DNA from: a virus | Direction: 5' to 3' (one strand) | Length of the DNA: 51,537 nt | Virus record (IMG/VR): IMGVR_UViG_3300045988_148326 | Location: 1 to 51,537 of that record | Shown: piece by piece, positions 2,915 to 48,319 of the stretch | Layout: each line of letters starts with the position of its first letter | Numbering within the stretch: the first letter of the stretch is position 1 | Position numbers and translations under genes: made by a program | The notes under the pieces: model-generated | What the model was told of the DNA's origin: nothing | The model's database searches: none | The model's input: only the letters and a program-made list of their open reading frames with translations

Positions 2915-2995
2915 AGTATAGTAGTTTAATGGTAAAACTACAGAGCGCCATTGGTTTGTGTGCCTGTTATGCGGGTTCGAGTCCCGCCTATACTC
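2915..2995 (+). tRNA. tRNA-like gene with canonical acceptor, D and T arms but a non-canonical, over-long anticodon arm; isotype undetermined
   Basis: - Acceptor AGTATAG (2915..2921) pairs perfectly with CTATACT (2988..2994).
- D arm GTTT-AATGGTA-AAAC.
- T arm GCGGG-TTCGAGT-CCCGC.
- The 28 nt at 2940..2967 fold only as ACAG(A)GCGC / GTGCCTGT with an 11-nt loop CATTGGTTTGT.
- No encoded CCA. Confidence 0.6.
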
Positions 2996-3024: not shown

Positions 3025-4998
3025 ATGGCGAAATATCTTTTCATAGACGTCGAAACATTTTCCTCAGTAGATATTAAAGACTCTGGTGCCTATAAATATA
3101 TAGAGTCACCAGATTTTGAGATACTGATTATAGGATATGCATTAGATGACGGACCAGTTATCATTGTCGATTTAGCTCAAGGCGAAGAAATGCCTGAAGA
3201 GTTTGAAGAAGCATTACTTGACCCAGAGTGTATGAAAGTCGCTCACAATGCAGTATTTGAGCGGCTTAGCTTTAAGCGAATAGGATATAATATCCCAGCA
3301 GAACAGTGGTATTGTACTTCTGTAAAAGCTGCATATTGTGGCTTACCACTTTCATTGGATGGAGTATCAAAGGCTCTTAATCTTACAGATAAGAAGCTTG
3401 ATACAGGTAAAGCACTTATTAAGTACTTTTCATGCCCATGTAAAGCAACTCGAGTTAATGGAATGCGTACACGCAATTATCCAGAACATGCTCCTGAAAA
3501 ATGGGAAATGTATAAGGAATATAATAAATATGATGTATTAGCTGAGCGTGAGATATTTCATAGATTAGAGTCTTACATCATTCCAAAGATTGAGCGAGAA
3601 ATGTACGTGCTTGACCAGAATATCAATGATAGAGGTATTTTGGTGGATATGGAGTTAGCAGAGTCTGCTATTGCAGTAGATAATACTTATACTTCTATAT
3701 TAACTCAGCATGCTCAGCAATTAACAGGTCTTGAAAATCCAAATTCGCCTGTACAAATTCGGCAATGGATAGAAAAGAAAACAGGTAATGCTGTATTGTC
3801 ACTTTCAAAAGAAACAATGCCTGACTTGCTTAAAGAGTTTGTAGACTATCCAGATGTAATTGAGTTGCTCAATATACGCAAAAAGCTATCAAAAACTTCA
3901 ATTAAGAAGTATTATGCTATGCTTAATTGTGCTATGAAAGACCATAGAGTTAGAGGTACATTCCAATTTTATGGTGCAAATAGAACTGGCAGATGGGCAG
4001 GTAGGCTATTGCAGTTGCAGAACTTATCAAAAAACTATATATCGCATATCGAAGTACCGCGTGAGTTAATCAGAGCCCGTGATTGGGAAACAGTTGAGAT
4101 GATGTATGATGATGTTGCAGATATTCTTTCACAACTTGTAAGAACAGCACTTATACCACCACAAGGTATGAAATATGCAGTTGCTGACTTTTCAGCTATC
4201 GAAGCAAGAGTTATATCTTGGCTCGCCGATGAAAAGTGGCGATTAGATGTATTTCACGGCGACGGTAAGATTTATGAAGCAACTGGAGAAAAGATGTTTG
4301 GAGTACCAAAGTCTGAAATTAAAAAAGGCTCGGTGCTTCGCGACAAGTCAAAAATATCCGAATTAGCATTAGGCTATGAAGGAGGTCTTGGCGCATTAAA
4401 GCGCATGGGCGGTGATAAAATGGGTCTTTCAGACACAGAAATGATGAGCCTGGTACGTAAATGGCGCATGGCTAATCCTAATATAGTTGATATGTGGAAA
4501 GAGATTGATGAGGCTTCTAAAGAAGCGGTAAGATACCACAGAGCCGTTAAGTGCACTAGTAAAAATGTTATATTTGATTGTGACGGTGAATTTATGACAA
4601 TAGAATTGCCTGTAGGCAGAAAACTATTTTATTATAAGCCTGAATTCAAAGATAAGAAAATAGGCCGTTCTACAGTTCCAATTCGAAGTTTGTGCTATAG
4701 AGGCATCGACCAGACAACAAAACAATGGATAAGCATGGACACCTATGGCGGCAAACTAACAGAAAATATAGTTCAAGCTGTATCAAGAGATTTGTTAGGT
4801 GATGCTATGCTTAGAATGGAAAAAGCTGGATATGGAATTGTGGGTTCAATACATGATGAAGTTATAACAGAGGTTCCAGAAGAGAATGCTCAGCTATGGT
4901 ATGATAATTTGGTAAAAATCATGTCAACTCCACCTTTGTGGGCACAAGACCTTCCACTTAATGCAGATGGAGGAGTTATGGATTTTTACCAAAAATGA
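3025..4998 (+). CDS. Family A DNA polymerase with 3'-5' exonuclease domain
   Basis: FIDVETFS (Exo I), HNAVFE (Exo II), YNKYDV (Exo III), VADFSAIEARV (motif A), RDKSKISELALGYEGG (motif B), SIHDEV (motif C). Confidence 0.93.
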   Translation: MAKYLFIDVETFSSVDIKDSGAYKYIESPDFEILIIGYALDDGPVIIVDLAQGEEMPEEFEEALLDPECMKVAHNAVFERLSFKRIGYNIPAEQWYCTSVKAAYCGLPLSLDGVSKALNLTDKKLDTGKALIKYFSCPCKATRVNGMRTRNYPEHAPEKWEMYKEYNKYDVLAEREIFHRLESYIIPKIEREMYVLDQNINDRGILVDMELAESAIAVDNTYTSILTQHAQQLTGLENPNSPVQIRQWIEKKTGNAVLSLSKETMPDLLKEFVDYPDVIELLNIRKKLSKTSIKKYYAMLNCAMKDHRVRGTFQFYGANRTGRWAGRLLQLQNLSKNYISHIEVPRELIRARDWETVEMMYDDVADILSQLVRTALIPPQGMKYAVADFSAIEARVISWLADEKWRLDVFHGDGKIYEATGEKMFGVPKSEIKKGSVLRDKSKISELALGYEGGLGALKRMGGDKMGLSDTEMMSLVRKWRMANPNIVDMWKEIDEASKEAVRYHRAVKCTSKNVIFDCDGEFMTIELPVGRKLFYYKPEFKDKKIGRSTVPIRSLCYRGIDQTTKQWISMDTYGGKLTENIVQAVSRDLLGDAMLRMEKAGYGIVGSIHDEVITEVPEENAQLWYDNLVKIMSTPPLWAQDLPLNADGGVMDFYQK

Positions 4999-5007
4999 TT
5001 AGCATTT

Positions 5008-7410
5008 ATGCAAGTAGATAAATTGAAATATGATGAAAATTTGAGCATAGCAGTTGGACTAAATGTTTCAAGTAAAGTATGGAAAAATACCAAAACTACT
5101 TGGAGCAATTTAGTTCAAAAGCTAGCTACTCCTGTAGTAACCGCTGAAACATATAAGCGGTTTATGAGTGCTACAAAAGAAGAGCAAAGTAAGATAAAAG
5201 ATGTAGGCGGATTTGTAGGCGGATTTCTTACAAATGGTAGGCGTGATAAAACAAATGTACTTTACCGCCAGTTAATTACATTGGATATTGACTTTTCTCA
5301 TGAGAACTTTTGGTGGGACTTTACAATGCTATTTGATTGTGCTGCGGTTATTCATTCAACCCATAAGTCATGCCCTGAAAAGCCACGACACAGATTGATA
5401 ATTCCACTTGATAGAGAAGTATCGCAAGAAGAATATCAAGCTATTGCTCGAAAAGTCGCTGGAGACCTAAACATTGATTTGTTTGACCAGTCAACTTTTG
5501 ATGTAAATAGACTTATGTTCTGGCCGTCTGTATCATCAGATATGGAGTACTACTTTGAATTTCAAGACGGACCTTTCCTTGAAGCTGATTATATCCTTGG
5601 GCTATATGATGATTGGCATGATACGAGCGAATGGCCAACTGCTACAGATAGCACAGATGTAATAATGCAAGCTATCAAAAAGCAAGAAGACCCAGAAGAT
5701 AAAAAAGGCATAATTGGTGTTTTCTGTCGTACTTATACTATACAAGAAGCTATTGAGACTTTTCTTTCAGATGTATATACACCAGCTGGAGAAGGGCGAT
5801 ATACGTATATAAATGGCTCTACAGCTGCGGGCTTAATAGTCTATGATGATAAATTTGCATATTCTCATCATGGAACAGACCCTGCTGGAGGTAGACTATG
5901 TAATGCATTTGACTTAGTTCGCATACATAAATTTGGCCATTTAGATACAGGCAAAGAAAAAGAAGACAAAGATAAAAAGAGCTTTAAGGCAATGGAAGAA
6001 TTTGCCTCTAAGGACTCTACAACAAAAAAGCATATTGCTGAAGAAAAGTTTGCTGAAGCTAAATTCGAGTTTGCAGAAGAAGCAAAAGCAGAAGTTCCTG
6101 AAGAATATGATACTTCATGGACAGAAGAGCTTGACGCTAATACAAAAGGCGAATATGATAATTCTGCCAATAACTTGAATATAATAATTCAGCATGACCA
6201 ATTCTTAAAAGATGTATTTAAGCTAAACATTTTTGATAATAAAAGATATGTTACACGTTCGTTACCATGGCGTAAAGTCGATACTGTGGAGCCTCTTCGT
6301 GATGTTGACTATTCTGGTGTTCGTAATTACATTGAGTGTGTTTATGGCATTGTGTCAAGTCAAAAAGTGGACGACGCGCTTGCGCTTGAATTTGAAAAGA
6401 AAAAGTTCCATCCGATAAGAGAGTATATATGTGCTCAAAAGTGGGATGGCATACCGAGAGTTAATACATTATTGATTGATTATTTTGGAGCAGAAGATAA
6501 CGCTTATACTAGAGCCGTCATTAGGAAAACGTTGGTGGCGGCTGTTGCGAGGGTATTCGAGCCAGGTATTAAGTTCGACACAGCGCTTATACTTGTCGGA
6601 GAACAAGGAACATATAAAAGTACTTTCGTTAAAAAGCTCGGCATGGAATGGTTCTCAGATACATTCACGACTGTGCAGGGCAAGGAGTCATTTGAACAGA
6701 TACAAGGGGCGTGGCTGATTGAAATGGCAGAGCTTTCAGGCCTTAAGAAAGCAGAAGTAGAGTCAATAAAGCACTACATATCAAAAAGAGAAGATATGTT
6801 CAGGCCGGCGTATGGTAGAACAGTAGAAACATATAAGCGCCAATGCGTATTTTTTGGTACTACTAACAACAAAGATTTCTTACGTGACCCGACAGGAAAT
6901 AGACGATTTATGCCTATAGACGTAAGGCCAGAATATGCTACAAAGTCTGTAAATGATGACCTTACACAAGATGAAATAAATCAAATATGGGCTGAAGCAT
7001 ATCAACTATATTTGGCAAAAGAGCCTTTATACCTCGTTGGTGATGAAGATATAATTGCTAAGATTGAGCAACATAAACACTCAGAAGCAGATGAGCGAAA
7101 AGGTATTATTGAAGAATATCTTAATACTAAATTTCCAGATGACTGGGATGAAATGGACCTGTACGACAGAAGACGTTGGCTTGAAGACCCATTGTCTAAA
7201 AACGGTACAGTGCAAAAAGACTTTGTCTGCATTGCTGAAGTATGGTGTGAGTGCCTTGGCAAAGATAAGACAGAAATGTCAAGATATAATACCAGGGAGG
7301 TTAATGAAATTCTTAGGTCATTGCCTGAATGGGAAGCTATAGCATCCACTAAGAACTTTCCTTTATATGGTAAACAGAAATACTATAAACGTAAAGATAG
7401 CTTATTATGA
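5008..7410 (+). CDS. Bifunctional primase-helicase (AEP prim-pol N-terminus + VirE/D5-type SF3 P-loop helicase)
   Basis: LITLDIDF, IHSTHKS and RHRLIIPL in the N-terminal half. Walker A VGEQGTYKSTF, WLIEMAEL and FFGTTNN in the C-terminal half. 800 aa. Confidence 0.88.
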   Translation: MQVDKLKYDENLSIAVGLNVSSKVWKNTKTTWSNLVQKLATPVVTAETYKRFMSATKEEQSKIKDVGGFVGGFLTNGRRDKTNVLYRQLITLDIDFSHENFWWDFTMLFDCAAVIHSTHKSCPEKPRHRLIIPLDREVSQEEYQAIARKVAGDLNIDLFDQSTFDVNRLMFWPSVSSDMEYYFEFQDGPFLEADYILGLYDDWHDTSEWPTATDSTDVIMQAIKKQEDPEDKKGIIGVFCRTYTIQEAIETFLSDVYTPAGEGRYTYINGSTAAGLIVYDDKFAYSHHGTDPAGGRLCNAFDLVRIHKFGHLDTGKEKEDKDKKSFKAMEEFASKDSTTKKHIAEEKFAEAKFEFAEEAKAEVPEEYDTSWTEELDANTKGEYDNSANNLNIIIQHDQFLKDVFKLNIFDNKRYVTRSLPWRKVDTVEPLRDVDYSGVRNYIECVYGIVSSQKVDDALALEFEKKKFHPIREYICAQKWDGIPRVNTLLIDYFGAEDNAYTRAVIRKTLVAAVARVFEPGIKFDTALILVGEQGTYKSTFVKKLGMEWFSDTFTTVQGKESFEQIQGAWLIEMAELSGLKKAEVESIKHYISKREDMFRPAYGRTVETYKRQCVFFGTTNNKDFLRDPTGNRRFMPIDVRPEYATKSVNDDLTQDEINQIWAEAYQLYLAKEPLYLVGDEDIIAKIEQHKHSEADERKGIIEEYLNTKFPDDWDEMDLYDRRRWLEDPLSKNGTVQKDFVCIAEVWCECLGKDKTEMSRYNTREVNEILRSLPEWEAIASTKNFPLYGKQKYYKRKDSLL

Positions 7411-27219: not shown

Positions 27220-27870
27220 ATGGGATTAAATTGTGGATGCCCTGTTGCAGCACATCTTGCTGACCTTGAGATTAACGATTGCAAGGAAAGCATGGGGCAA
27301 ATTCAAAAAGTTGCATTCCAGCGTATCTATAAGACTGCTGGAGAGTTGAACTCTGTCGCAGACCCGACTAAGAAAGCATCGTTTGCCACTTTGTTTTCTG
27401 CAGCCAATGGTACTAAGATGACAGTGTCGCCTTATATTCAGAGTCCTGCTACAGAACCTGGAGCAGCTCGTACATTCGGTGGTGGAAACCAGACGCTTGG
27501 AGGTATTCCTATTACAATTGGTCGTGAAGCAACAAACTTTACCGGTGTAATTTATCAGGAAAACCAAAAAGTTATTGCTCAGTTGAAGCAGTATCAGTGT
27601 GAAAACATCGGTGTTTATCTTATCGACGAAAATGGCAACATTGGCTGTTTGGTAGATGACCTTGATGAGCCTACTAAGTACATGCCTATTCCTATTTACA
27701 GCTTCTTTGTAGGTGATAAGTCACTTGGCGGGTATGAAGAGCCTGATAGCAATGCTATTAGCTGGTCTTTTGTTCCTAACTGGAGTGATAAGTTCTACAT
27801 TATCAAGCGTGAAACTTTGGACTTTAATCCTCTCACTGATTGGGTTAACGTAGCTTCCGCTGGAGCTTAA
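27220..27870 (+). CDS. Probable abundant virion protein (tail tube or decoration protein is a guess)
   Basis: 216 aa with its own promoter and higher GC, like the capsid and SSB genes. Its C-terminus VASAGA resembles the capsid C-terminus VAAGA. Confidence 0.55.
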   Translation: MGLNCGCPVAAHLADLEINDCKESMGQIQKVAFQRIYKTAGELNSVADPTKKASFATLFSAANGTKMTVSPYIQSPATEPGAARTFGGGNQTLGGIPITIGREATNFTGVIYQENQKVIAQLKQYQCENIGVYLIDENGNIGCLVDDLDEPTKYMPIPIYSFFVGDKSLGGYEEPDSNAISWSFVPNWSDKFYIIKRETLDFNPLTDWVNVASAGA

Positions 27871-31263: not shown

Positions 31264-32355
31264 ATGAGCTTAGTATTAACTCGTATTCAGAACACTCTTG
31301 CTAATTCCAGATTGGATAAGTATGAGTATCGTGCAAGTAGGTACGGCGCGCTCGATGCTTTTATGGTGCAGTCGAATGACCCTACAGGTATTTTAACCCC
31401 TGAGTTGAAAGAGAAGGCCCGTACTTCTATCGGTACAACTCTTCAAACTCCAGTAATTGACTATGATGCGGATGTTACTATTGGTAATACTCGCTCTTTG
31501 ACAATTGCTGATAGCGAAAACACTTCTCGATTTGTTGACATCACGTTTGCTACCTATTCATGGGGCTTTACTATTGCTCCGGCAATGTACATGAACAACG
31601 AAATTGGTATTCAGCGCGACTTTGACACTAAGTTGATGAAGTATGCATACGCTGTCGCAAAGAAACTCGATGAAGCTGCTTTGGCTATTTTGGCTGCAGA
31701 TAAAACTCAGGTTCTTAAGAACAAGCTGTTGTATGATTTTTCAACTAATGCGTTGAATGCAAAGTGGACAGAGCGTGAGAACGTATTTGGCGACCTTGAG
31801 GTGCTTATGGGAGCAAATGATTTCTATGGCCAGTTGCATATCATTGGTGACCCTGGAGTTGAGAGTATCATGCGCAAGTTGCAGCAACATGGTTTGTACA
31901 ACGACGTAAACAAGCAAAATGAGTTTGGCAACAAGATTATTCACTTGACGAACAACATTGCAGCAGCTGGTGGTAAATATGCACAAGGCTATGCCGTGAA
32001 TGCAGGTTCACTTGGAATGCTGTTGCGCTATGAGCGTGATTGCTTGCTCGGAACTATTTCAGGTGACGGCCATGAGTGGGATATTGCTACTTATCCTGTT
32101 ATTAACATGCCTGTTGGTACATACTTCTACGACTCTGTAGGAGACTATAGCACTATTGCAGGAGCTGCTACTGCAGATATGACCCGCACCCGCAAGGAAC
32201 ATTACGGATTTGCAGTTGATGTAGCGTTTATCACCGCTTATAACAGTGATAGAGCTACTTTGCCTAGTCCTATTCTTGCATTTAACGTTTCTAGCGAAGA
32301 TGCAGTTTATGCAACGCCTGTTGATGTTGTTAAAACAGTAGCAGCCGGTGCCTGA
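31264..32355 (+). CDS. Probable major capsid protein
   Basis: 363 aa, follows the scaffold gene, elevated GC, and is followed by a strong terminator. Confidence 0.65.
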   Translation: MSLVLTRIQNTLANSRLDKYEYRASRYGALDAFMVQSNDPTGILTPELKEKARTSIGTTLQTPVIDYDADVTIGNTRSLTIADSENTSRFVDITFATYSWGFTIAPAMYMNNEIGIQRDFDTKLMKYAYAVAKKLDEAALAILAADKTQVLKNKLLYDFSTNALNAKWTERENVFGDLEVLMGANDFYGQLHIIGDPGVESIMRKLQQHGLYNDVNKQNEFGNKIIHLTNNIAAAGGKYAQGYAVNAGSLGMLLRYERDCLLGTISGDGHEWDIATYPVINMPVGTYFYDSVGDYSTIAGAATADMTRTRKEHYGFAVDVAFITAYNSDRATLPSPILAFNVSSEDAVYATPVDVVKTVAAGA

Positions 32356-32432
32356 AGGTCATTCAATAGTGATTTCAGCAATGATTTCGCTATTGGGTAA
32401 ATAGCAAATCTTTGAGTTGTTATTAGCTTTGG

Positions 32433-32475
32433 CAGGAGGCACTGAGGAAAATACCTTAGTGACCTCCTGTTTTTC
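32433..32475 (+). terminator. Intrinsic terminator after the capsid gene
   Basis: CAGGAGG (32433..32439) pairs with CCTCCTG (32463..32469), plus CAC/GTG, followed by T5. Confidence 0.7.
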
Positions 32476-32494: not shown

Positions 32495-33799
32495 ATGGTT
32501 AGAGCTATAGATATACAAGAAAAATTACTCCATTTGATAGGATGGGAGCAAAATTATGACACATCAGACTTAAAAATATCTGATGCTTTAACTGTGAGCG
32601 AAAGTGGTTTATATTTTCAGCAAATTCACCCGCTGCTGACCTTGCAGAATATGTCTTGTATCGCTCCGGATTTTAAGAACATGACTTTTGAGGAATATAG
32701 CGCGGAAAAAGCATATTCTAAAGGTAATATAGTAAAATACAATGAGCTATTGTATAAAGCTCTACAAAATTCAGTTGGAAAACAGCCTGATATTGAGTCT
32801 GAGTATTGGGTTGAAACCAATCCATTTTCTGAATGGCTTGAAAGCAAAACAAAAGCTAGTATTCAAAAAGCCATTTCACGATATTGCAATGAAAAAATCG
32901 CACAAGGCACATATAAGACTTTATGCGAAAATAGAACACTATTTGATGGAACTGGCCGTTTAGTAGATGTTGTAAAGAATAAGAAAAATCTAGTTGGCTT
33001 TGAAATTATACCAATAAGAGCAAAAGGCGTAACTACTAAAATCAATAAGATAGGTTTACAGTTTACAGAACCTGGCGAATATACTTTATATCTTATGCAT
33101 TCTAGCATGGATGCACCAGTCAAGATAATAAAGCTTAATAAGATACGTAAAAACAGCATAGAGTGGTTTTCACTTAACGATATATATCTACCATACCAAG
33201 GTGATAATAATGATGCAGGTGGTAGCTGGTATTTGTACTATTTTCAATCTGAATTACCAGAAGGTAGTCAAGCTATAAGAAAAAATAAAGATTGGTCTAA
33301 AGAGCCGTGTGGCTCATGTTCACGTAAAGAGTTATTAGCTTGGCAAGCTTGGTCTAAGTATATAGAAGTACACCCGTTTTTTGTTAATGAGGAATTGGTT
33401 GAGATAGAAGAAGAGCCACATCTGTGGGATGTTGAAAACAATCAATATACCTATGATAATAACTACGGATTAAATCTTGAGATAACCGTGGCCTGTGATA
33501 TTACTGACTTTATAATAGAGCAGCGATTGTTATTCCAAGATATTATAGCAAAACAAGTAGCAGTAGATATGCTACGTGAGTTTGCTTATAATGCTAATGT
33601 ACGTACAAACAGGCATTCAATAAATGCATCTAGGCTTGATATTCTTTATGAAGTTGATGGCGACTCTTCATCTATGAAAAAATCTGGCCTTAGCTATCAA
33701 CTTGATATGGCATTTAAGGCAATAAATATCAGTACTCAAGGAATAGACAGAGTTTGCCTTCCTTGTAAAAACAATGGTATAAAATATAGAACTGTATAG
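32495..33799 (+). CDS. Hypothetical structural protein (track ORF starts at TTG 32417 inside the terminator; ATG at 32495 preferred)
   Basis: 434 aa from MVRAIDIQEKLLH... Confidence 0.55.
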   Translation: MVRAIDIQEKLLHLIGWEQNYDTSDLKISDALTVSESGLYFQQIHPLLTLQNMSCIAPDFKNMTFEEYSAEKAYSKGNIVKYNELLYKALQNSVGKQPDIESEYWVETNPFSEWLESKTKASIQKAISRYCNEKIAQGTYKTLCENRTLFDGTGRLVDVVKNKKNLVGFEIIPIRAKGVTTKINKIGLQFTEPGEYTLYLMHSSMDAPVKIIKLNKIRKNSIEWFSLNDIYLPYQGDNNDAGGSWYLYYFQSELPEGSQAIRKNKDWSKEPCGSCSRKELLAWQAWSKYIEVHPFFVNEELVEIEEEPHLWDVENNQYTYDNNYGLNLEITVACDITDFIIEQRLLFQDIIAKQVAVDMLREFAYNANVRTNRHSINASRLDILYEVDGDSSSMKKSGLSYQLDMAFKAINISTQGIDRVCLPCKNNGIKYRTV

Positions 33800-39852: not shown

Positions 39853-42090
39853 ATGATACCTCCAAAATATAAATTCTACATATCAAAGAATGATGGTGAT
39901 AAAGTAGAAGTAAGACCTCATTACAAAGAGCTTAATAAGAAATATGCAAAAGAAAGTGGCCAAGAATTTTTCCGCATTTCGTTAGATGGAAAAATAAACT
40001 TATTTGGTAGTGATTATGAAATAATAAGCCAATCAAACATAGAAGACCAACTTATTTTTATAGTAGATAAATATAATAATACTTCCAAAAAATGGGTTGA
40101 ATATTACAGAGGCGAATTTAGTAAGACTGATTGTAAATTTGACCATGATAAGAAGAAATGTGAACTTAAAACTACAGCTGTAGATGGATATACTGAGGTT
40201 ATGAACAAGTATGAAAATACTTATGACCTTATAAAGCTTGCTCCTGAAATATCAAAAATAAACTTGCATAAACGCTCACTCATGCAAGTTTATGTCCGTG
40301 GTGCCAATTCTATAACTAATTTCTTCGGTGGTACCTATTGGGAAGATGATGTGAATGAAAGTATAGATGACAATGCTGCGCTTATAAATAACTTCTATTT
40401 TTCCTATATAAAATCTGGTAATGAATTTTACATAGAAAATTCTAACGAAGCAGGTGTTAATGGCGTATATGCCGGAACTAATGGTTATTATAGCAACTGG
40501 AATGGCTATACTTGCTATTTAGAGAAAAATCCTGATGCTCAACCACCATTTACAGATGTAAGCTACTTTATTATGATAAAAAGAAATTCAGATAATAAAG
40601 TACTATATAAATCTGAAACAGCTGTTAATATCGATGATGAAACGCTGTTTTCAGAAGACCGAGATTACACTAATGATAAACACTTAAGATATACCTCTAA
40701 ACTAATAGATGTGGAAAATGCTAAAAACTCATGTACTATAAGTAATTTGTTTACATATAGAATATATAGGCGCTTACTTTGTGATGTAGATACTGTAGAA
40801 GACTCAGAAGGTGTTAAAAATACCTATAATTTACCATCAGATGATTTTGTCACTGATAATAGAAACTATAAAAAATGTATTGGCTTAAAAGGAGGTTTAT
40901 TCTTTTGTACTTCTAGAGCAGTAGATGAGCCAACAAAATATGGTCTAAATGATTACGGACAGTATTTTACTAACCAGTTTATTCCTAGTAGTACAGGTTT
41001 AGGAAGACCTTTACCTATTAGCAAAAATTCATGGGCAAATGCTTCACTGTGGTATATATATGATAGTTTTTATGAATATTTTGAAGAAAAATTAAGAAAA
41101 CAGTATGTATTAAAAGATAGTTATTCTATTGGCGCGGCCATAAAGGCTATTCTCAAGAAAATAGACCCTACATTATCACATGAGCCAACACCTGAATACA
41201 GCCAATTCTTATACGGAAGTTCTAATCCATTAGGAATGAAAAGATTTTATGTATATATAACACAAAAAACCAATATATTAAAAGGCAATTATGACCAGCC
41301 CGCTCAGAAAGCTGAAACTTCACTCGAAGAGCTTATGAAAATGTTGCGTGATTGCTTTAGATGTTATTGGTATATTGAAGACAATAAATTCAAAATAGAG
41401 CACGTATACTTCTTTATGAATGGTGGAAGCTATTCTAGTAGGTCAAGCTATCAGCTTGATTTTACTAAACTTACAGACCAATTTAATAAGAAGCTATCAT
41501 CATATTTTCAATCAGAAGTAGAATATGATAAAACAGACCTAAATCAGCGATACGAATTTGGTTGGATGGACGATGTAACCGATTTGTTTGGTGGTGTAAC
41601 CATTGATGTGAAATCTAATTATATACAAAAAGATAAAACAGAAGAAATAAACATTGGACAGTTTTCATCTGATGTGGATTATATGTTATTTAATCCAACA
41701 AACTTTTCAGAAGACGGTTTTGCACTTTTATGTCCTGTAAAAAATGGTTCACTACTTGAATTACCAATTCTTACTATAAATGGTCTTATTGATGAAAATG
41801 GCGATAGTTATAAAGCTATAGCACAAAACTGGTATGCATCGTGGATATATTTACAAAATATGTATATGTGGGATATGCCAGCATCAAATTTAGAGTCTAA
41901 TGTAATTGGAAATATATACGCAAGAGATATTAAAAAATGCATGAAACACACTATAGAATTTCCTACAGAAGAAGACCCAGACGAACTAGAGCTTATTAAA
42001 ACAACGTTTGGAAACGGCAAAATAGATGAAATATCTATTAGTTTAGATACAAGAATCGCTAAAGTAAATCTGCTTTACAGGCCGGAGTGA
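39853..42090 (+). CDS. Distal tail / baseplate protein
   Basis: 745-aa ORF directly after the tape measure. Confidence 0.55.
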   Translation: MIPPKYKFYISKNDGDKVEVRPHYKELNKKYAKESGQEFFRISLDGKINLFGSDYEIISQSNIEDQLIFIVDKYNNTSKKWVEYYRGEFSKTDCKFDHDKKKCELKTTAVDGYTEVMNKYENTYDLIKLAPEISKINLHKRSLMQVYVRGANSITNFFGGTYWEDDVNESIDDNAALINNFYFSYIKSGNEFYIENSNEAGVNGVYAGTNGYYSNWNGYTCYLEKNPDAQPPFTDVSYFIMIKRNSDNKVLYKSETAVNIDDETLFSEDRDYTNDKHLRYTSKLIDVENAKNSCTISNLFTYRIYRRLLCDVDTVEDSEGVKNTYNLPSDDFVTDNRNYKKCIGLKGGLFFCTSRAVDEPTKYGLNDYGQYFTNQFIPSSTGLGRPLPISKNSWANASLWYIYDSFYEYFEEKLRKQYVLKDSYSIGAAIKAILKKIDPTLSHEPTPEYSQFLYGSSNPLGMKRFYVYITQKTNILKGNYDQPAQKAETSLEELMKMLRDCFRCYWYIEDNKFKIEHVYFFMNGGSYSSRSSYQLDFTKLTDQFNKKLSSYFQSEVEYDKTDLNQRYEFGWMDDVTDLFGGVTIDVKSNYIQKDKTEEINIGQFSSDVDYMLFNPTNFSEDGFALLCPVKNGSLLELPILTINGLIDENGDSYKAIAQNWYASWIYLQNMYMWDMPASNLESNVIGNIYARDIKKCMKHTIEFPTEEDPDELELIKTTFGNGKIDEISISLDTRIAKVNLLYRPE

Positions 42091-42151: not shown

Positions 42152-43006
42152 ATGAAGTTAGTAAATAATAACATATCGCCACTACCTTTTTATGATAATA
42201 TTGCTCTGCAAAATCATCGTAAAGATTATGCGTATGGTCAGGTTTATCCGCTTATAACCTATAAGAATATGCTATTACCATTTCAAGTAGTTTTAGCTAG
42301 TGGAACATCAGTGAATTGGGTTAGACTATATGACTTTAATACTGGTAAATACACTTATATAACTACCAGTATGAAAGAAAATGGTCTAACTATTAAGTCA
42401 TTCACAGGTTTTAAGCTGTTAAAATACCCAGGTACTTTACCTATAGTTGAAATAAAGCATGAAGGCTTATATTACTTAGCTATTAATATAAGTGGCTTAG
42501 GTATTATATATTCAGATTTATTTACAGTAACTAATAGAGTATCAGATTATTTGCTTATTGAATATAGCAACTCATATAATTTTGAGCTCAAAAATGGCAT
42601 TGTAGATTTTTCTGACAATTTTGCTTTTAAGTGTTATCTTAATACGCAAGTAGGCAAGCCGGAATATGACTTTGAAGAAGAGGCCACTGAGCGAATGGGC
42701 TATACTTTCATTGAAAGTCAAGTAAGCAAAAAGATATATAAATTTGTATTCTTAGCACCTGAATATCTATGTGATGCTCTTAGGATTGTAAGGCTGTGCA
42801 ATAATAAGCAAATTACTAGCAGGTTGCAGACCTATGATTTAACTACATTTAATATGGAGCCCGAATGGGAAGACCAAGGAGATTTAGCTTCAGTTGAGTG
42901 TGAATTTGAAACGGACACTGTCATAGCTAATATAGGAGGTTATACTCCAGAATTAGCTGGCGGAGATTTTAATAGTGATTTTAACAATGACTTTAATAAC
43001 GAATAA
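42152..43006 (+). CDS. Tail/baseplate protein ending in tandem DFNx tetrapeptides
   Basis: 284 aa. The C-terminus is GGDFNSDFNNDFNNE (42965..43003). Confidence 0.5.
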   Translation: MKLVNNNISPLPFYDNIALQNHRKDYAYGQVYPLITYKNMLLPFQVVLASGTSVNWVRLYDFNTGKYTYITTSMKENGLTIKSFTGFKLLKYPGTLPIVEIKHEGLYYLAINISGLGIIYSDLFTVTNRVSDYLLIEYSNSYNFELKNGIVDFSDNFAFKCYLNTQVGKPEYDFEEEATERMGYTFIESQVSKKIYKFVFLAPEYLCDALRIVRLCNNKQITSRLQTYDLTTFNMEPEWEDQGDLASVECEFETDTVIANIGGYTPELAGGDFNSDFNNDFNNE

Positions 43007-43008
43007 TT

Positions 43009-46000
43009 ATGGCAAATTGGAGCAACTTAAAAGCTGCGGTTGCTGAAGTTATAAAGACTAATAGCAATCAAGAAATAACGGGAGCAGTTTTACAAAATGT
43101 CCTTAATAATATTATTAGCAATGTGGGGGAAAACGCATCTTTTGCGGGTGTAGCAACCCCCAGCACAAACCCTGGCACACCTGATGGTAATGTATTTTAT
43201 TTTGCCATACAGCCAGGGATATATTCAAATTTTGGCAGTGTTACGTTAACTGAAGGATTAAATATATTATTATGGAATGGCTCAATATGGTCAGCTGATA
43301 ATTTAACTAAATCATTATTAAATAATATAAATAGTAACACGGGTGTGGACGATTACCCGGTTTTCAGCACGTCGGAGGCTTATTCCAAAGGCAAAGTCGT
43401 AAACTATAACGGGAAACTATATAAATTCACGGCTGACCACGCCGCAGGAGCGTGGATAGGAACGGATGTAGAACCATATAATTTGAAAAAGGATATAGAA
43501 GAAAGATATGGTACATACACAGACAGTCCCGAATTTATCCGTGTCTACACCGATGCTGAAGGCAAATTCCTTTGGGGAATAAGGGTTGACGGTTCTATTG
43601 AGTGGGCGAAAGGTGTGCCGACACCGATACAGAATGCACTGAAAGAGCTTGCCGACAAGATAAAAGACGCGATAGACGTTATCAACGCTTCGCTGAAAAC
43701 GCTGACCGACACGTTCAGCTACCAGGACAATCCCGAATTTGTCAATGTTGTCACCGACGCTGAGGGGAAAGTTTTGTTCGGTATAAAAGAAGATGGCAAG
43801 CCGTATTTCCCTAAGAACACAATGTACAGCGTTGAAAGCAACCAAGAGTTCTTGGCGGCATGGCTTGACGCAGCAGGGCACGTTCTGTTCGGACTGCGGA
43901 CGGATGGCAGCACATACGTTGCAAAGGCGGACTTCATCGAGAAAATTGAGAAGATACAACAACTCCTGAAAGACAATGGTATAGGTGACTTCAATAACAC
44001 GTTCAGTATCATCAGTAATGATGAATGGCTTCATGCAGTTGTGGATTCTGAAAATAAATTGTTATTTGGAATCAGAGCAAAAGATGGTAAGGTAGTAATG
44101 CCTAAGCAAGACACATATAATATCATCAGTAATGATGAGTGGCTTGCTGCATGGGTTGATAAGTCAGACAAACTTTTGTTTGGTGTTAAAGCAGACGGTA
44201 CATTTTGGGCTGCAAAATCAAACTTTGCCGGAGGCGGAAACTATGATGAGCAGATAGCCCAACTAAACGAGAAAATTCAGCAGCTTAAAGACCAAATCCA
44301 AGCCACTGCAAGTGATGTATTCTTTGTAATTGACGATGCAGAAGAAAGGCTTGCAGTTACAACTGATAAAGACGAAAGAATTATTTCTTACAGAGATAAG
44401 GACGGTGTGCTGCATGAGAAGAAAGGTGTTGACACCTCAAAATACTATCTGAACGGTGAGGAAAAGGACTTCACGGACAGAAGCGAGATTGCAGGCGAAG
44501 TAACAAAAGCCGCAGAGAATGGTGCCGTAAAGCTGGAAAATGTGGAGGGCGTAAGTAATCATAATACACCTAACTTGCTTATTGCTTCTGAAATGGAAAA
44601 GACATTTAATGATGGAACTAATAGTTTTACTCCACCGAATGAAGGTTACGAAATGTCTAATCCTATTGAATGTCAGGCCGGGGATTGGTTTACAAGAACA
44701 GGTATTGCTACTGGTATGGTTGTTGTTACTGATGCAGAGGATAAGAATGGTACAAGACTTTTCAATGCTGATGGTACTACTTTGGGTAATACATTCCAGA
44801 TACCTAAAGATATGACTTGGGTAAGGTATATTCGTATGGCTGCGCAAGTAAGTGCAGCAGAAGACGGTTCTGTTGTTATTTGTAAAGGAAAGTATGCTTA
44901 TATAGGTAATGATAAAGGTGATTTCTTAACTGCGTCTAAATTAAGAATAGAAAGAAGAAATTTATCTAATGATGTTGCGTATATTAAGTCAGAAGATGGC
45001 ACAAAATTTTATAAATTGTATGTAGATGCTTCTGGAACTCTTAAAACAAAAGAAATTGACCCAGATGTAATTCCTGAAAATGAATATCCTACTAATTGGC
45101 TTCCCGTAACATTTAGCGGTAGTTTTGAAGATTATTGTGATAGGATTCCTATTTGCACAAAAAATTATCTGATGGATATTAAAGCTACTGGCCCTGTGAA
45201 AATATATACATTCGATAATCAATTAACCGATATGTATAATAATTTCGAGCATTTTTATAATTCAACGGGTGAAGGAAGATATGGAATAATTCTATTCCAA
45301 GTACCCACAGGGTATAAGTCAGGATTCTTTTTGTTTGATGAAGATTTCAACATATTGGAAAACATACGTAGTGTTGGAGATATGCACGATTTTGTCTATA
45401 TAGATGACGACCATTTAATATTCTTCACAAATTATCTTACTACGGTTAATGGTGGAGGTGTTGAGAATGCTAAAATTTATGTTGTTCATGTTACAGAAAT
45501 GAAAAAGATAAATGGAGAATGGAAGACTATCGGCACCTTTAACCAAGAAGATTATCCAAAACTTTGTACCGATTGCTACGGTGATTTAGGTGGAACAGAA
45601 GGAGGACATATTAATACTATCGGACTTGACTATGATGGAAACTTAATTATAAATCAAAGGAACTGGGATACATTCTTTAAAATAAAAAGAACCGAAAATC
45701 CTGACGGGACAGTAACAATAGGAAGTAAAACTCTTGATTATGATGAAGCTATTATAGGTAGGGTTGGAGGCAGACATAATTCTGCTTATCTTGACAGTAA
45801 AAGAGTTCTTAACGAAGGATTCTCATTTACAGATGTTCCTTCTTCACTCAGTGATGTTTCTTCTGACGATTGGGAAGAATGGCAGTGGTTCCATTGCCAT
45901 GATGTCAAGTATTGGGGTAAGAAGAATATTGATGGAGTTGATTATCCTACTTACACTTTGTTCGATAATAATTATTGGACTGGAGCTACTCATGTTTCAG

Positions 46001-46404
46001 GTGGGTATAATGCTACTAATAAAAATAATAATTATACTATAAATCCTAATGGAGATGGCGGTAGCTATTCGCAATCTAAAGATTCAGATAGCAATTATGC
46101 TAAATACACTCATTCTCGTGTAATACAGATTACTATTGACTGGGAGAACCATAAAGTAAAAGATTATAGAGTATATGTTATTCCTAAACTATACGGCAGG
46201 GAAACATGTGGAGCTGTAATGTTTGACGAAGGAGTTATATGTATTGCTTATGGTCCTCAAGGTATATTTGGAATTTGGGATTTTACTACCGAAGAAACTG
46301 ATGTCCAAGGACATATTTATACTGGTGCAAAAGAGGTATTTAAAGCTAAGTATGATACTTATAGAGAGTGTTATAGAGCAAATGCTTATAAATTAAAAAA
46401 TTAA
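43009..46404 (+). CDS. Tail fibre / receptor-binding protein
   Basis: 1131 aa, six tandem peptide repeats, position in the distal tail module. Confidence 0.7.
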   Translation: MANWSNLKAAVAEVIKTNSNQEITGAVLQNVLNNIISNVGENASFAGVATPSTNPGTPDGNVFYFAIQPGIYSNFGSVTLTEGLNILLWNGSIWSADNLTKSLLNNINSNTGVDDYPVFSTSEAYSKGKVVNYNGKLYKFTADHAAGAWIGTDVEPYNLKKDIEERYGTYTDSPEFIRVYTDAEGKFLWGIRVDGSIEWAKGVPTPIQNALKELADKIKDAIDVINASLKTLTDTFSYQDNPEFVNVVTDAEGKVLFGIKEDGKPYFPKNTMYSVESNQEFLAAWLDAAGHVLFGLRTDGSTYVAKADFIEKIEKIQQLLKDNGIGDFNNTFSIISNDEWLHAVVDSENKLLFGIRAKDGKVVMPKQDTYNIISNDEWLAAWVDKSDKLLFGVKADGTFWAAKSNFAGGGNYDEQIAQLNEKIQQLKDQIQATASDVFFVIDDAEERLAVTTDKDERIISYRDKDGVLHEKKGVDTSKYYLNGEEKDFTDRSEIAGEVTKAAENGAVKLENVEGVSNHNTPNLLIASEMEKTFNDGTNSFTPPNEGYEMSNPIECQAGDWFTRTGIATGMVVVTDAEDKNGTRLFNADGTTLGNTFQIPKDMTWVRYIRMAAQVSAAEDGSVVICKGKYAYIGNDKGDFLTASKLRIERRNLSNDVAYIKSEDGTKFYKLYVDASGTLKTKEIDPDVIPENEYPTNWLPVTFSGSFEDYCDRIPICTKNYLMDIKATGPVKIYTFDNQLTDMYNNFEHFYNSTGEGRYGIILFQVPTGYKSGFFLFDEDFNILENIRSVGDMHDFVYIDDDHLIFFTNYLTTVNGGGVENAKIYVVHVTEMKKINGEWKTIGTFNQEDYPKLCTDCYGDLGGTEGGHINTIGLDYDGNLIINQRNWDTFFKIKRTENPDGTVTIGSKTLDYDEAIIGRVGGRHNSAYLDSKRVLNEGFSFTDVPSSLSDVSSDDWEEWQWFHCHDVKYWGKKNIDGVDYPTYTLFDNNYWTGATHVSGGYNATNKNNNYTINPNGDGGSYSQSKDSDSNYAKYTHSRVIQITIDWENHKVKDYRVYVIPKLYGRETCGAVMFDEGVICIAYGPQGIFGIWDFTTEETDVQGHIYTGAKEVFKAKYDTYRECYRANAYKLKN
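43522..44427 (+). repeat. Six tandem copies of a ~30-aa peptide motif inside the fibre gene
   Basis: The six copies are:
- DSPEFIRVYTDAEGKFLWGIRVDG
- DNPEFVNVVTDAEGKVLFGIKEDG
- SNQEFLAAWLDAAGHVLFGLRTDG
- SNDEWLHAVVDSENKLLFGIRAKDG
- SNDEWLAAWVDKSDKLLFGVKADG
- DDAEERLAVTTDKDERIISYRDKDG. Confidence 0.8.
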
Positions 46405-47650: not shown

Positions 47651-47818
47651 ATGGGAAATTTTGATGTCGAAAAGACAATCATAGTTCCGGACAGCGGAGG
47701 TAATGGGAATAACTTCCTAGCAGGTATGCTTGCATCCGCTTGTCAGTCTAAAGGCCTTGATGTCAATGCAGTAATGGCTTTGTGTGGAAACAGAAATGGC
47801 TCATTTGGAAATGGCTGA
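47651..47818 (+). CDS. 55-aa Gly/Asn-rich ORF ending in a TGA that is in frame with the next ORF
   Basis: Hand translation MGNFDVEKTIIVPDSGGNGNNFLAGMLASACQSKGLDVNAVMALCGNRNGSFGNG-TGA. Same frame as 47876..48319. Confidence 0.4.
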   Translation: MGNFDVEKTIIVPDSGGNGNNFLAGMLASACQSKGLDVNAVMALCGNRNGSFGNG

Positions 47819-47875
47819 GATGGTATTATTGCTCTTATTGTCATCGCCGCAATCTTCGGAGGAAATGGCAATGGT

Positions 47876-48319
47876 TTGTTTGGTAATAACAATAATAGCA
47901 CAGAGCGCCAGATGCTTATGGACGCAATTCAGCGCAATGGCGTTGATATTAGCCAGCTGGCAAGCACTTTGAATTGCTCTGTTGGTCAGGTACAGGCTGC
48001 TATCCAGCAAGTTGCTAGTCAGGTATGCAATGTAGGTAATCAGGTCGGTATGACTGGTCAGCAGATTATCAACTCAATTCAGCAAGGCAATATGGCTCTT
48101 ACTCAGCAAATCTGCAACTGCTGCTGCGATATCAAAACAGGTATCAAGGACCAGACTATTGCATTGCAAGGAGAGCTTAATAGCGTTAACCGTAGTGTTG
48201 AACGTGGTTTTGCTGATGTTGGCTATGCAACTCGCGACCAGACTTGCAACATTGAAAAGGCTATTCAGGCATCTACTGAGTCAATTCTTGCTGGTCAGCG
48301 TGCCGCTGAGATGCTGTAA
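47876..48319 (+). CDS. Gln/Cys-rich hypothetical protein (TTG start in the track; first in-frame ATG at 47911; the frame is open back to the TGA at 47816)
   Basis: QLASTLNCSVGQVQAAIQQVASQVCNVGNQVGMTGQQIINSIQQGNMALTQQICNCCCDIK... Confidence 0.55.
   Translation: MFGNNNNSTERQMLMDAIQRNGVDISQLASTLNCSVGQVQAAIQQVASQVCNVGNQVGMTGQQIINSIQQGNMALTQQICNCCCDIKTGIKDQTIALQGELNSVNRSVERGFADVGYATRDQTCNIEKAIQASTESILAGQRAAEML

Follow-up and report, generated by a model that had tools for sequence, protein, structure and literature searches.

The coat gene of Q-beta, an ssRNA coliphage, ends in a leaky UGA-A stop, and a minority of its coat subunits carries an extension and is built into the virion. The A1 extension made in this way is about 200 aa long and essential, and the stop is conserved. 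Minor capsid forms are also made by T7 and T3 (10A/10B), by the Listeria phage PSA (+1), and by A118 and A500 (-1), in these cases by programmed frameshifting. There, recoding at the extreme 3' end of the gene gives a fraction of the subunits a different or longer surface-exposed C-terminus. To our knowledge, frameshifting is the only form of recoding by which minor capsid forms are made in tailed phages. Additions of another kind were reportedly described by Fraser et al. (2006, in J Mol Biol), who are said to have found accessory Ig-like domains appended C-terminally to structural proteins of phages, in many cases through a frameshift.

The viral DNA analyzed here, a stretch of 51,537 nucleotides that we call the window, has a capsid gene with a UGA-A stop and an in-frame extension behind it, as in Q-beta. 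Unlike in Q-beta, the predicted extension has 14 aa instead of about 200, it belongs to a tailed dsDNA phage, the stop is polymorphic with sense codons, and the extension is dispensable in most relatives. The locus also differs from those of T7/T3, PSA, and A118/A500, which use slippery sites and a change of frame, whereas the extension in the window lies in the zero frame behind a stop; we found no -1 or +1 extension reached via a slippery site at the capsid gene of the window. The peptide encoded by the extension, which carries what we call the DFN motif, resembles the accessory Ig-like domains in being an optional, portable module of capsid, tail, or neck proteins. However, it is a disordered linear motif of 9-14 residues and not a folded domain, and its partner would be, judging from gene neighborhood, a phage fibre and not the host glycans proposed for Ig-like domains.

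The capsid gene and its in-frame extension

The region around the end of the capsid gene contains the following features:

31264..32355, + strand: major capsid protein gene, 363 aa, HK97 fold, with TGA as its stop
32353..32355, + strand: junction codon TGA, next base A (UGA-A), a polymorphic stop/sense site
32356..32400, + strand: DFN cassette, 14 in-frame codons RSFNSDFSNDFAIG (32356..32397) and a closing TAA (32398..32400), in the zero frame after the capsid TGA
32361..32398, + strand: RNA hairpin with a 12-bp stem and a 3-bp apical stem, covering cassette codons 3-14 and starting 5 nt after the TGA
32401..32431, + strand: conserved non-coding element ATAGCAAATCTTTGAGTTGTTATTAGCTTTG, which separates the cassette from the terminator
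~32432..32475, + strand: capsid-operon terminator, a 15-bp GC-rich hairpin and T5, from minimum-free-energy fold and sequence
32495..33799, + strand: head-to-tail adaptor protein, 434 aa (PDB 9wwa_I 'adaptor protein', E 2e-123; phrog_8189)

The capsid protein is an HK97-fold major capsid protein of Bacteroidota siphophages, with a match in sequence and in fold across the part that forms the shell. It matches phrog_7231 (E 4.5e-117) and, over residues 1-345, PDB 9ww9_F 'Capsid protein' of Parabacteroides phage PD491P1 (E 2e-96), and the top Foldseek matches of its AF2 model (pLDDT 83.6) are HK97-fold capsids. The last ~35 residues are predicted to be disordered, and one member of the family carries Big_2 Ig domains at its C-terminus. 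The C-terminus of this protein is thus one that tolerates and displays additions. Virion structures of PD491P1 (PDB 9ww9, 9wwa, and 9wwc) are attributed to Cai et al. (Structure 2026), as cited in PMC13576161. PD491P1 has homologs of the capsid, adaptor, tube, tail protein, and distal tail protein; unlike in the window, its capsid gene lacks the DFN cassette and ends ...AGGGGAGA-TAA.

An earlier sequence-only reading of this DNA had noted that the capsid ORF ends ...VKTVAAGA-TGA and continues in frame as RSFNSDFSNDFAIG-TAA, and its coordinates were exact. It had also placed the extension upstream of the terminator and hence in the mRNA, and we reach the same view: the terminator hairpin and its T5 lie 3' of the cassette, which places the extension within the capsid transcript. 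If ribosomes read through the TGA, the product would have 378 aa, with FNSDFSNDF placed 3 residues from the TAA. This product would give a junction peptide TVAAGA-x-R and a C-terminal tryptic peptide SFNSDFSNDFAIG (or SFNSDFNNDFAIG). The other frames at the capsid junction of the window do not encode the DFN motif.

The same reading had remarked on the similar ends of the capsid and of the protein encoded at 27220, and they are indeed alike. ORF 27220..27870 encodes the tail tube protein, which ends in NVASAGA (the capsid in VAAGA), with TAA as its stop and no extension.

The DFN motif in tail and neck proteins

The second occurrence of the motif in the window is in the tail genes:

42152..43006, + strand: distal tail protein (Dit), 284 aa, with the C-terminal tail GGDFNSDFNNDFNNE at 42959..43003
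43009..46404, + strand: tail fibre, 1131 aa, with the N-terminus MANWSNLKAAVAEVIKTNSNQEITG, directly after Dit

The resemblance between the capsid extension and the C-terminus of a tail protein, first proposed by eye, holds at the peptide level: the ORF at 42152..43006 ends in GGDFNSDFNNDFNNE, and searching the six-frame translation of the whole 51.5-kb genome for F[NSD][NSD]DF and DFxxDF returned only the capsid extension and the Dit end. The accompanying DNA match had been put at about 24 of 30 nucleotides and is in fact 22/27 between the core of the cassette and that of Dit in the same genome. Of the five differences, four are synonymous transitions at third positions and one is an S/N change, and we rejected the idea that the cassette was copied recently from the Dit end of the same genome, given this 22/27 match and its mostly synonymous differences. 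In 200 simulated genomes there was no 27-mer within 5 mismatches. As an argument for kinship, the DNA similarity is weak, because F, N, and D have two codons each, so that the DNA likeness is largely a by-product and the peptide likeness is the primary fact.

In Dit, which matches PDB 9wwc_S 'distal tail protein' of PD491P1 (E 3.5e-72; this protein ends in GDYNSDFNNDFNNQ), the motif is under strong constraint. Residues G271, F273, N274, D276, F277, N278, D280, and F281 are invariant in 57 homologs, and the pair G271 and D272 is invariant or nearly so, in a tail that is predicted to be disordered (pLDDT <50). In more than 100 contigs of Bacteroidota phages, Dit ends in an invariant GDFNNDFNNDF. 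We drew a pattern for the family of DFN tails, F-N-[NS]-D-F-[NS]-[ND]-D-F at no more than ~20 residues from the C-terminus, from a set of over 100 loci, and the capsid extension fits it, provided the frame is read through. In the capsid copies the first F is preceded by R/K/D-S in place of the G-D of the DFN tails. Together with S at motif positions 4 and 8, the S before the first F and the lack of GD make up a capsid-side signature that Dit tails do not have.

The gene that follows gives an indication of what the motif may bind. Among DFN-ended ORFs in other contigs, 82/100 stand directly before an ORF with an NGNxEITG-type N-terminus (motif ..LKxAIxxVIKxNGNxEITG..), as against ~6/746 of other ORFs. 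The fibre at 43009..46404 has the only N-terminus of this type in the window and directly follows Dit, in line with this rule; the capsid gene of the window departs from it, as its next gene encodes the adaptor. A search for PDB homologs of the fibre N-terminus found none. The motif also occurs in neck proteins of other phages: in an alignment of adaptor homologs, three of them (L114, L138, and L330) have DFN inserts, in two different loops, and another insert is found in a head-closure protein. Given the invariant yet disordered Dit tail, the neighboring fibre, and the inserts in the neck, DFN behaves as a docking motif. On Dit, we infer from gene neighborhood that it docks the N-terminal anchor of the fibre. 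The earlier suggestion that these repeats are an interaction peptide common to head and tail parts is, in general terms, strongly supported by the invariance in Dit and the adjacency of the fibre. Searching the literature for FNNDF or DFNNDF returned nothing relevant, and GD-FNNDFNNDF appears to be an undescribed short linear motif. Whether or not readthrough occurs at the capsid gene, a motif so closely linked to the N-terminus of the fibre encoded next provides a testable hypothesis for fibre attachment. Knowing it would help to engineer the host range of laboratory Bacteroides phages and to annotate tail genes now labeled 'hypothetical'.

Junction codon and conservation of the cassette

The TGA of the window is one allele of a stop/sense polymorphism, with CGA, CAA, and TTA at the same position in close relatives. 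In the 25 records with an in-frame cassette the junction codon is TGA (19), CGA (3), TAA (1, in L006), CAA (1), or TTA (1), which makes it, with five alleles, the most variable site of the region. The base after the codon is A in 19/19 TGA alleles, including that of the window. Cassette and capsid gene are fused in one uninterrupted ORF, through TTA, CAA, or CGA, in P0001, P0002, P0019, P0048, and L075. Most relatives have no cassette; their capsid stop is TAA-T or a tandem TGA-TAA, and it is the TAA of the cassette that aligns with it. The TTA of L204 is one step away from TGA or TAA and two from CGA, so that a stopped cassette seems to have been re-opened there, with an identical peptide. 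In four records of three lineages (L074, L219/L220, and L221) the cassette lies in the +1 frame, and we could recognize no slippery site at these copies, so cassettes can sit intact and apparently untranslated.

The capsid tag is confined to few lineages, since none of 150 capsid representatives (50% clustering) has a fused DFN end; a metagenome scan for further capsid cassettes recovered 5 loci only. The 3' ends of the capsid genes reassort by recombination, and because this uncouples the C-terminal type from the capsid body, the order of events that led to the TGA allele cannot be read reliably.

Comparison of relatives had been proposed as a check on two points, the conservation of the stop and selection on the frame of the extension, and these gave opposite outcomes. 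The stop is not conserved, with 20/25 stops and 5/25 sense codons. The frame of the cassette, on the other hand, appears from these alignments to be under purifying selection as a peptide, although part of the divergence may date from fused ancestors. There are no indels or internal stops inside any of the 25 in-frame copies, 20 of which bear a stop. Between cassettes of types A and B there are 6 synonymous and 2 S/N changes, and L074 has an identical SFNSDFSNDF with 11/30 nucleotides different, all of them synonymous and including two switches of Ser codon family. The TGA allele spans lineages whose capsid genes are 80% identical in DNA, with a divergence at fourfold sites of 48-56%, and across these lineages the TGA and the cassette differ at 4/45 nucleotides. 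The probability of so few differences is at most ~1e-7 if sites change at the fourfold rate and 0.006-0.04 if they change at the overall rate. Local identity peaks at the cassette (0.88-0.92, vs 0.73-0.75 to the left and 0.58 to the right).

Two other processes could produce part of this pattern. A recent short recombination patch could mimic conservation of the cassette, and nucleotide-level constraint on the hairpin and the downstream element could explain the conservation of type A without translation. The downstream element is found in nearly all relatives, cassette-bearing or not, and matches at 33/34 positions in the divergent L200 lineage, while the terminator diverges among lineages (58% identity in that interval). 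The 42 nucleotides are in any case a genuine and portable coding cassette, with a conserved peptide, a conserved RNA, and a polymorphic junction codon.

A possible capsid tag made by readthrough

We tentatively propose, with a rough probability of 0.45, that the capsid cassette is an optional tag, that the junction codon acts on it as a dimmer at the level of the population, and that readthrough at UGA-A and the hairpin tags a few subunits. The cassette would be an optional appendage at the flexible C-terminal end of the capsid protein, and the same module as the invariant disordered end of Dit, a module that other Bacteroidota siphophages also carry on their neck proteins. A sense codon (CGA, CAA, or TTA) would tag every subunit, TGA would tag few, and a frameshift or the absence of the cassette would leave all subunits without it. 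With the UGA-A and hairpin of the window, most ribosomes would stop and release the 363-aa capsid protein. A small fraction may misread the UGA by means of the near-cognate tRNA-Trp and produce a 378-aa subunit ending in RSFNSDFSNDFAIG, so that each head would carry a handful of copies of a peptide that, on Dit, probably docks the N-terminal anchor of the fibre. Two parts of this scheme are our inference, namely a useful rate of readthrough and the binding partner of the peptide.

A UGA with A as its next base is readily misread by tRNA-Trp, a rule established in E. coli and not in Bacteroides (PMC5289835), and by this E. coli-derived rule the stop of the window is a leaky codon in a leaky context. 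The UGA-A, the hairpin 5 nt downstream, and the conservation beyond that of neutral sites fit low-level readthrough. The sequence-only reading had offered two interpretations, readthrough or a relic of a longer capsid gene truncated by a nonsense mutation. The former is a candidate with this circumstantial backing, and the apparently untranslated +1-frame copies elsewhere weigh against it. The latter is right in that uninterrupted longer capsid genes (CGA, CAA, TTA) exist in close relatives. The term relic fits poorly, as TGA is the commonest allele (19/25), occurs on capsids that are only 80% identical, and precedes a cassette conserved beyond neutral sites. A broader scheme, in which DFN is a universal 'plug' for a 'socket' at the fibre N-terminus in Bacteroidota siphophages, its placement on Dit, on neck proteins, or on the capsid sets the site of the fibre, and the UGA-A/hairpin dimmer sets the dose on the capsid, seems to us unlikely.

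Were this broader scheme true, it would be the first example, in any tailed dsDNA phage of the gut, of a structural gene with programmed or selected stop-codon readthrough. If our proposal holds, a capsid form made by readthrough would mean a new decoding route, in a very common group of phages of human-gut Bacteroides, and a natural, tunable means of displaying peptides on the head. The stop, sense, and frameshift variants at a single codon would then be a natural experiment on the costs and benefits of a tag on the virion surface.

The tag may instead work only when fused through a sense codon, with TGA as a knock-out and readthrough both negligible and unselected. The intact cassette would then reflect young alleles, refreshment by recombination, or constraint at the RNA level. 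We find this explanation possible, although somewhat doubtful. Sense alleles do exist, CGA becomes TGA by a single C-to-T transition, and the junction codon has the five alleles described above, one of them a TAA, which is a poor readthrough codon. Other lineages have switched the cassette off independently by frameshift, its absence from most relatives makes it dispensable, and C-terminal variants reassort freely. Yet TGA is the majority allele, and it is shared across ~50% divergence at neutral sites with 4/45 differences in the cassette. In addition, the 20 stop-bearing copies show no decay, and the reversion to TTA retained an identical peptide. Finally, UGA-A is intrinsically leaky (PMC5289835), and with what are probably hundreds of subunits per head, tagged subunits would be hard to avoid.

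RNA structure and other explanations

The hairpin has a free energy of -17.8 kcal/mol (z -3.5) and is fully paired in 9/9 distinct type-A variants. All of its 7 variable columns are structure-neutral: 2 pairs have a one-sided change that keeps a wobble, and the other 5 columns are unpaired. This raises the question of whether selection acts on the hairpin and the downstream element as a structure at the 3' end of an abundant capsid mRNA, with a role in stability, processing, or as an aid to termination, and with a coding look inherited from the coding sequence it came from. It would explain why synonymous sites of type A are conserved too (2/14 third positions changed, vs ~40% in the flanking genes) and why the neighboring non-coding element is conserved equally. 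However, type B and L074 lack the hairpin and kept the peptide through many synonymous changes, none of the nine type-A variants has a double compensatory change, and the search against Rfam gave no family match. A role of the RNA alone is improbable, and it is not exclusive of readthrough, because a 3' hairpin is also expected of a readthrough signal.

We give even less credit to the idea that the cassette is a scar, i.e. the 3' fragment of a DFN-ended gene (e.g. Dit) brought in by illegitimate recombination and never functional at the capsid. The motif is common at gene ends in related phages, the cassette of L074 resembles a 35-nt insert after the stop, and the gap between capsid and adaptor is a hot spot for insertions, where PD491P1 has a gene for an I-HmuI-type endonuclease. 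A scar of this kind agrees poorly with the signature specific to capsid cassettes and absent from Dit tails, with the 25/25 copies of the window's lineage that are in frame and end at the aligned TAA, and with the 5/27 nucleotides that separate the cassette from its own Dit core and tell against a recent copy.

That the TGA is not a stop at all, through reassignment (as in phages with codes 4, 15, or 25), a suppressor tRNA, or selenocysteine, is hardly credible and close to refuted: stop-codon recoding is known in other gut phages (e.g. PMC9523058), and at 47816 another in-frame TGA stands in place of a conserved TGG, but TGA terminates 17/63 predicted genes, of which several have a tandem stop, the late genes are not dotted with in-frame TGAs, and searches found neither a tRNA with a TCA anticodon nor a SECIS-type Rfam match. 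A single tRNA-like gene is present (2915..2995). Its anticodon loop is interrupted by a 20-nt insert and it has no TCA, and we rejected it as a source of suppression or code change. The TGA at 4996, between two large ORFs in the same frame, is an ordinary stop, and isolates annotate DNA polymerase I and the next gene at this place.

The capsid stop codon and its in-frame extension

The window is a complete phage contig of 51,537 bp whose closest cultured relatives are the Bacteroides fragilis siphophages BF486P2 and BF503P1 and their kin (~67% nucleotide identity in the capsid region). The genes around the capsid stop were named by sequence matches to PDB entries 9ww9, 9wwa and 9wwc (structure paper: Cai et al. 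2026, as cited in PMC13576161). We assign these entries to Parabacteroides phage PD491P1, whose 372-aa capsid begins with the same sequence.

Features of the window
27220..27870, tail tube protein (PDB 9wwa_N, E 1e-63)
31264..32355, major capsid protein, 363 aa, HK97 fold (phrog_7231 match; PDB 9ww9_F 'Capsid protein', E 2e-96)
32353..32355, capsid stop TGA (junction codon)
32356..32400, cassette, 14 in-frame codons and TAA
32495..33799, head-to-tail adaptor (match to solved PD491P1 structure)
39853..42090, 'tail protein' (match to solved PD491P1 structure)
42152..43006, distal tail protein, Dit (match to solved PD491P1 structure)

The capsid ORF ends in ...VKTVAAGA-TGA, and its frame continues as AGG TCA TTC AAT AGT GAT TTC AGC AAT GAT TTC GCT ATT GGG TAA, which encodes RSFNSDFSNDFAIG and a stop. 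The sequence-only reading likened this extension to the end of a tail protein. This is borne out: that protein, Dit, ends in GGDFNSDFNNDFNNE, and across all six frames the motif (DFN) occurs at these two places only. The likeness claimed at the DNA level is real, with 22 of 27 core nucleotides identical, four of the five differences being synonymous third-position transitions, and no comparable core match in 200 simulated genomes, but it is mostly explained by the fact that only two codons exist for each of F, N and D. Since the solved PD491P1 Dit ends in GDYNSDFNNDFNNQ, the motif is a conserved Dit feature.

The capsid gene of BF486P2 ends in ...KTVA TAA, and the window has 54 extra in-frame nt ahead of the aligned stop. 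The capsid C-terminus (32332..32352 and relatives) is a hypervariable run of Gly, Ala and Ser that shifts in length by whole codons (AAGA, AAAGA, AASAGA, TASA, AAGAGA, EASAGVGG and others), and one capsid (L038) continues to ...GAGDDKPIANL. The similarity noted earlier between the ends of the capsid and tail tube proteins holds (VAAGA and NVASAGA), and no extension follows the tube gene, which stops at TAA. This gene is flanked by those for the large terminase and the portal, apart from the other tail genes.

An optional appendage with a toggling junction codon

In some close metagenomic relatives the capsid reads unbroken through the extension (...AAGARRSFNSDFSNDFAVG, ...AASAQRSFNSDFSDDFAIG, ...GAGALRSFNSDFSNDFAIG, ...AAGARRSFNNDFNNDFG). 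Among the 25 DNA records with an in-frame cassette, window included, the junction codon reads TGA in 19, TAA in one, CGA in three, CAA in one and TTA in one. There are two cassette types, A (RSFNSDF[SN]NDFAIG, as in the window) and B (RSFNNDFNNDFG), and both are found with TGA and with CGA junctions. The cassette is absent from 71 of 91 relatives; the capsid stop of cassette-less relatives is TAA-T or a tandem TGA-TAA. Since TTA (L204) can be reached in one step from TGA or TAA but needs two from CGA, this allele represents a stopped cassette that was re-opened with its peptide unchanged. The C-terminal type does not track the capsid-body tree, which means that recombination reshuffles the capsid 3' ends. 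There is no doubt that the cassette is genuine coding material; it is an optional addition to the capsid protein, and its junction codon switches between states in nature.

In three separate lineages a DFN cassette adjoins the capsid stop in the +1 frame, overlapping it by two bases.

+1-frame cassettes (slash marks the start of the cassette frame)
L074 (~4115..4185), GGA T/GAT AGC TTT...
L219 and L220 (= L106/L194), CAG T/AGA GTT ATC GGA TTC AAT AGC...
L221, CAG T/AAC TCG TTT GGT GAC GAG GAC TAC AAT AGT GAT TTC

No slippery site was found at any of them; a single change separates L219 from L220, and in the cassette frame it is synonymous. These +1 cassettes look like switch-offs, caused by gain of one nucleotide or loss of two, or like insertions into the 3' UTR, and they show that a cassette can be intact without having to be translated. 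PD491P1 has a gene between capsid and adaptor (L333 2994..3518) whose annotation is DNA endonuclease I-HmuI, which marks this gap as a hot spot for insertions.

Selection on the cassette

Types A and B differ over eleven codons by six synonymous and two S/N changes. The L074 decapeptide SFNSDFSNDF is identical to that of the window, with 11 of 30 nt differing, all synonymously, including two serine codon-family switches. What is kept across types is the peptide rather than the DNA; within type A the DNA is conserved too. No indel or internal stop was found in the 20 stop-bearing copies. One TGA-allele lineage (L200, L201, L334-L337) has a capsid gene 80% identical to that of the window, and its divergence at fourfold-degenerate sites is 48% for the capsid and 56% for the adaptor gene. 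Only 4 of 45 positions differ in TGA plus cassette (R to K, S to N by 2 nt, one synonymous); the probability of this is ~1e-7 or lower if the fourfold rate is applied and 0.006-0.04 with the overall rate. Sliding identity is highest over 32335..32424 (0.88-0.92), falling to 0.73-0.75 immediately upstream and to 0.58 across the terminator. The conserved cassette could also reflect a short patch spread recently by recombination.

Readings of the window TGA allele

We tentatively favour, with a probability of about 0.45, the UGA-A allele as a 'dim' setting that would give a small, selected fraction of DFN-tagged capsid subunits. The comparison of relatives proposed from the sequence gave a divided answer: the extension is conserved as a peptide (L074; type A against type B), but the stop is not kept as a stop, being sense in 5 of 25 records and TAA in one. 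This and the absence of the cassette from most relatives argue against a simple reading as programmed readthrough. A silent OFF allele is a possibility to be taken seriously, as the +1-frame cassettes of three other lineages are intact yet apparently untranslated.

The base after TGA is A in every TGA allele, a context in which tRNA-Trp is prone to misread UGA according to PMC5289835; the paper adds that highly expressed genes favour UAA. Cassette codons 3-14 form a hairpin (32361..32398; 12-bp stem plus 3-bp apical stem; -17.8 kcal/mol, z -3.5) 5 nt after TGA, and known ribosome geometry would put its stem at the mRNA entry channel with UGA in the A site. All pairs are kept in nine distinct type-A variants: in two of them a one-sided change leaves a wobble pair, the other five variable columns are unpaired, and no double compensatory change occurs among these variants. 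As a readthrough signal the hairpin is suggestive only. An element 3' of the capsid stop (ATAGCAAATCTTTGAGTTGTTATTAGCTTTG, 32401..32431), non-coding and folding as a small hairpin, is kept in almost every relative, the isolates at 67% identity among them. That the cassette hairpin and this 3' element are themselves the selected feature is unlikely: RNA-level constraint could account for type-A conservation, but the peptide, not the DNA, is kept across types, and neither type B nor L074 has the cassette hairpin. We consider a mere recombination scar quite improbable. Recoding of TGA can be set aside almost entirely: in this genome TGA serves as an ordinary stop, terminating 17 of the 63 predicted genes, and no suppressor tRNA was found.

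A tRNA-like gene at 2915..2995 (47 bits against Rfam tRNA) has an anticodon arm of 20 nt where 9 are expected; ARAGORN gives it a 4-base 'ccat' anticodon, and its anticodon holds no TCA. An in-frame TGA at 47816..47818 interrupts a conserved gene of 222 codons (47651..48319) that encodes a membrane-like segment. The matching codon is TGG in all ~20 relatives and L, I or F in more distant ones; the change from TGG to TGA is private to the window genome. If tRNA-Trp misread this UGA, the normal product would be regained, and hence this is either a tolerated leaky stop or a defective or mis-called variant. The large replication ORFs 3025..4998 (DNA polymerase I-like) and 5008..7410 (primase/helicase-like) share a frame, with one TGA and 9 nt between them; isolates annotate two genes, and we took the shared frame as coincidence.

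The DFN peptide and its fibre neighbour

A degenerate coding-pattern scan of viral contigs returned at least 115 loci. In almost all matches listed, 10-21 residues separate the motif (mostly GD-FNNDFNNDF) from the protein C-terminus; the carriers listed are mostly Dit homologues of ~276-290 aa, plus a ~200-aa family, a ~740-840-aa family and several small proteins. G271, F273, N274, D276, F277, N278, D280 and F281 are invariant in 57 Dit homologues (37-89% identity), making the motif the best-conserved stretch of Dit. AlphaFold predicts residues 262-284 to be disordered (pLDDT below 50), and a tail that is invariant yet predicted to be disordered is what short linear docking motifs usually look like.

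Among the matches listed, 82 of 100 DFN-ended ORFs have, only a few bases downstream, an ORF with the N-terminus ..LKxAIxxVIKxNGNxEITG.., found in ~6 of 746 other ORFs, a count in which many loci are interrelated and independence is overstated. The pairing persists across several different upstream families. In the window the fibre gene (43009..46404), starting MANWSNLKAAVAEVIKTNSNQEITG, is the only such ORF. This gene neighbourhood suggests that DFN may bind the fibre N-terminal domain.

DFN also forms a clean 9-14-residue insert in two different adaptor-homologue loops (L114:4300-5631; L138:2767-4122 and L330:10051-11388) and lies within a head-closure protein, Hc3 (L168:3421-4893, phrog_578). 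With its presence in Dit, adaptor, head-closure and capsid proteins, DFN is a portable peptide borne by those parts of the virion that could serve as fibre attachment sites (tail tip, neck, head). Ig-like domains of the Big_2 kind are known from the exterior of capsids. The last ~35 residues of one fused capsid (P0019) are predicted to be unstructured and another family member (P0124) bears two C-terminal Big_2 Ig-like domains; therefore, a C-terminal DFN tag on the capsid would likely be exposed.

Sub-threshold Pfam matches mark a CBM_5_12-like stretch, AYSKGxxVxYNxxLYK, common to adaptor residues 68-88 (32696..32758) and fibre residues 119-139 (43363..43425), with a pairwise E of 0.001.
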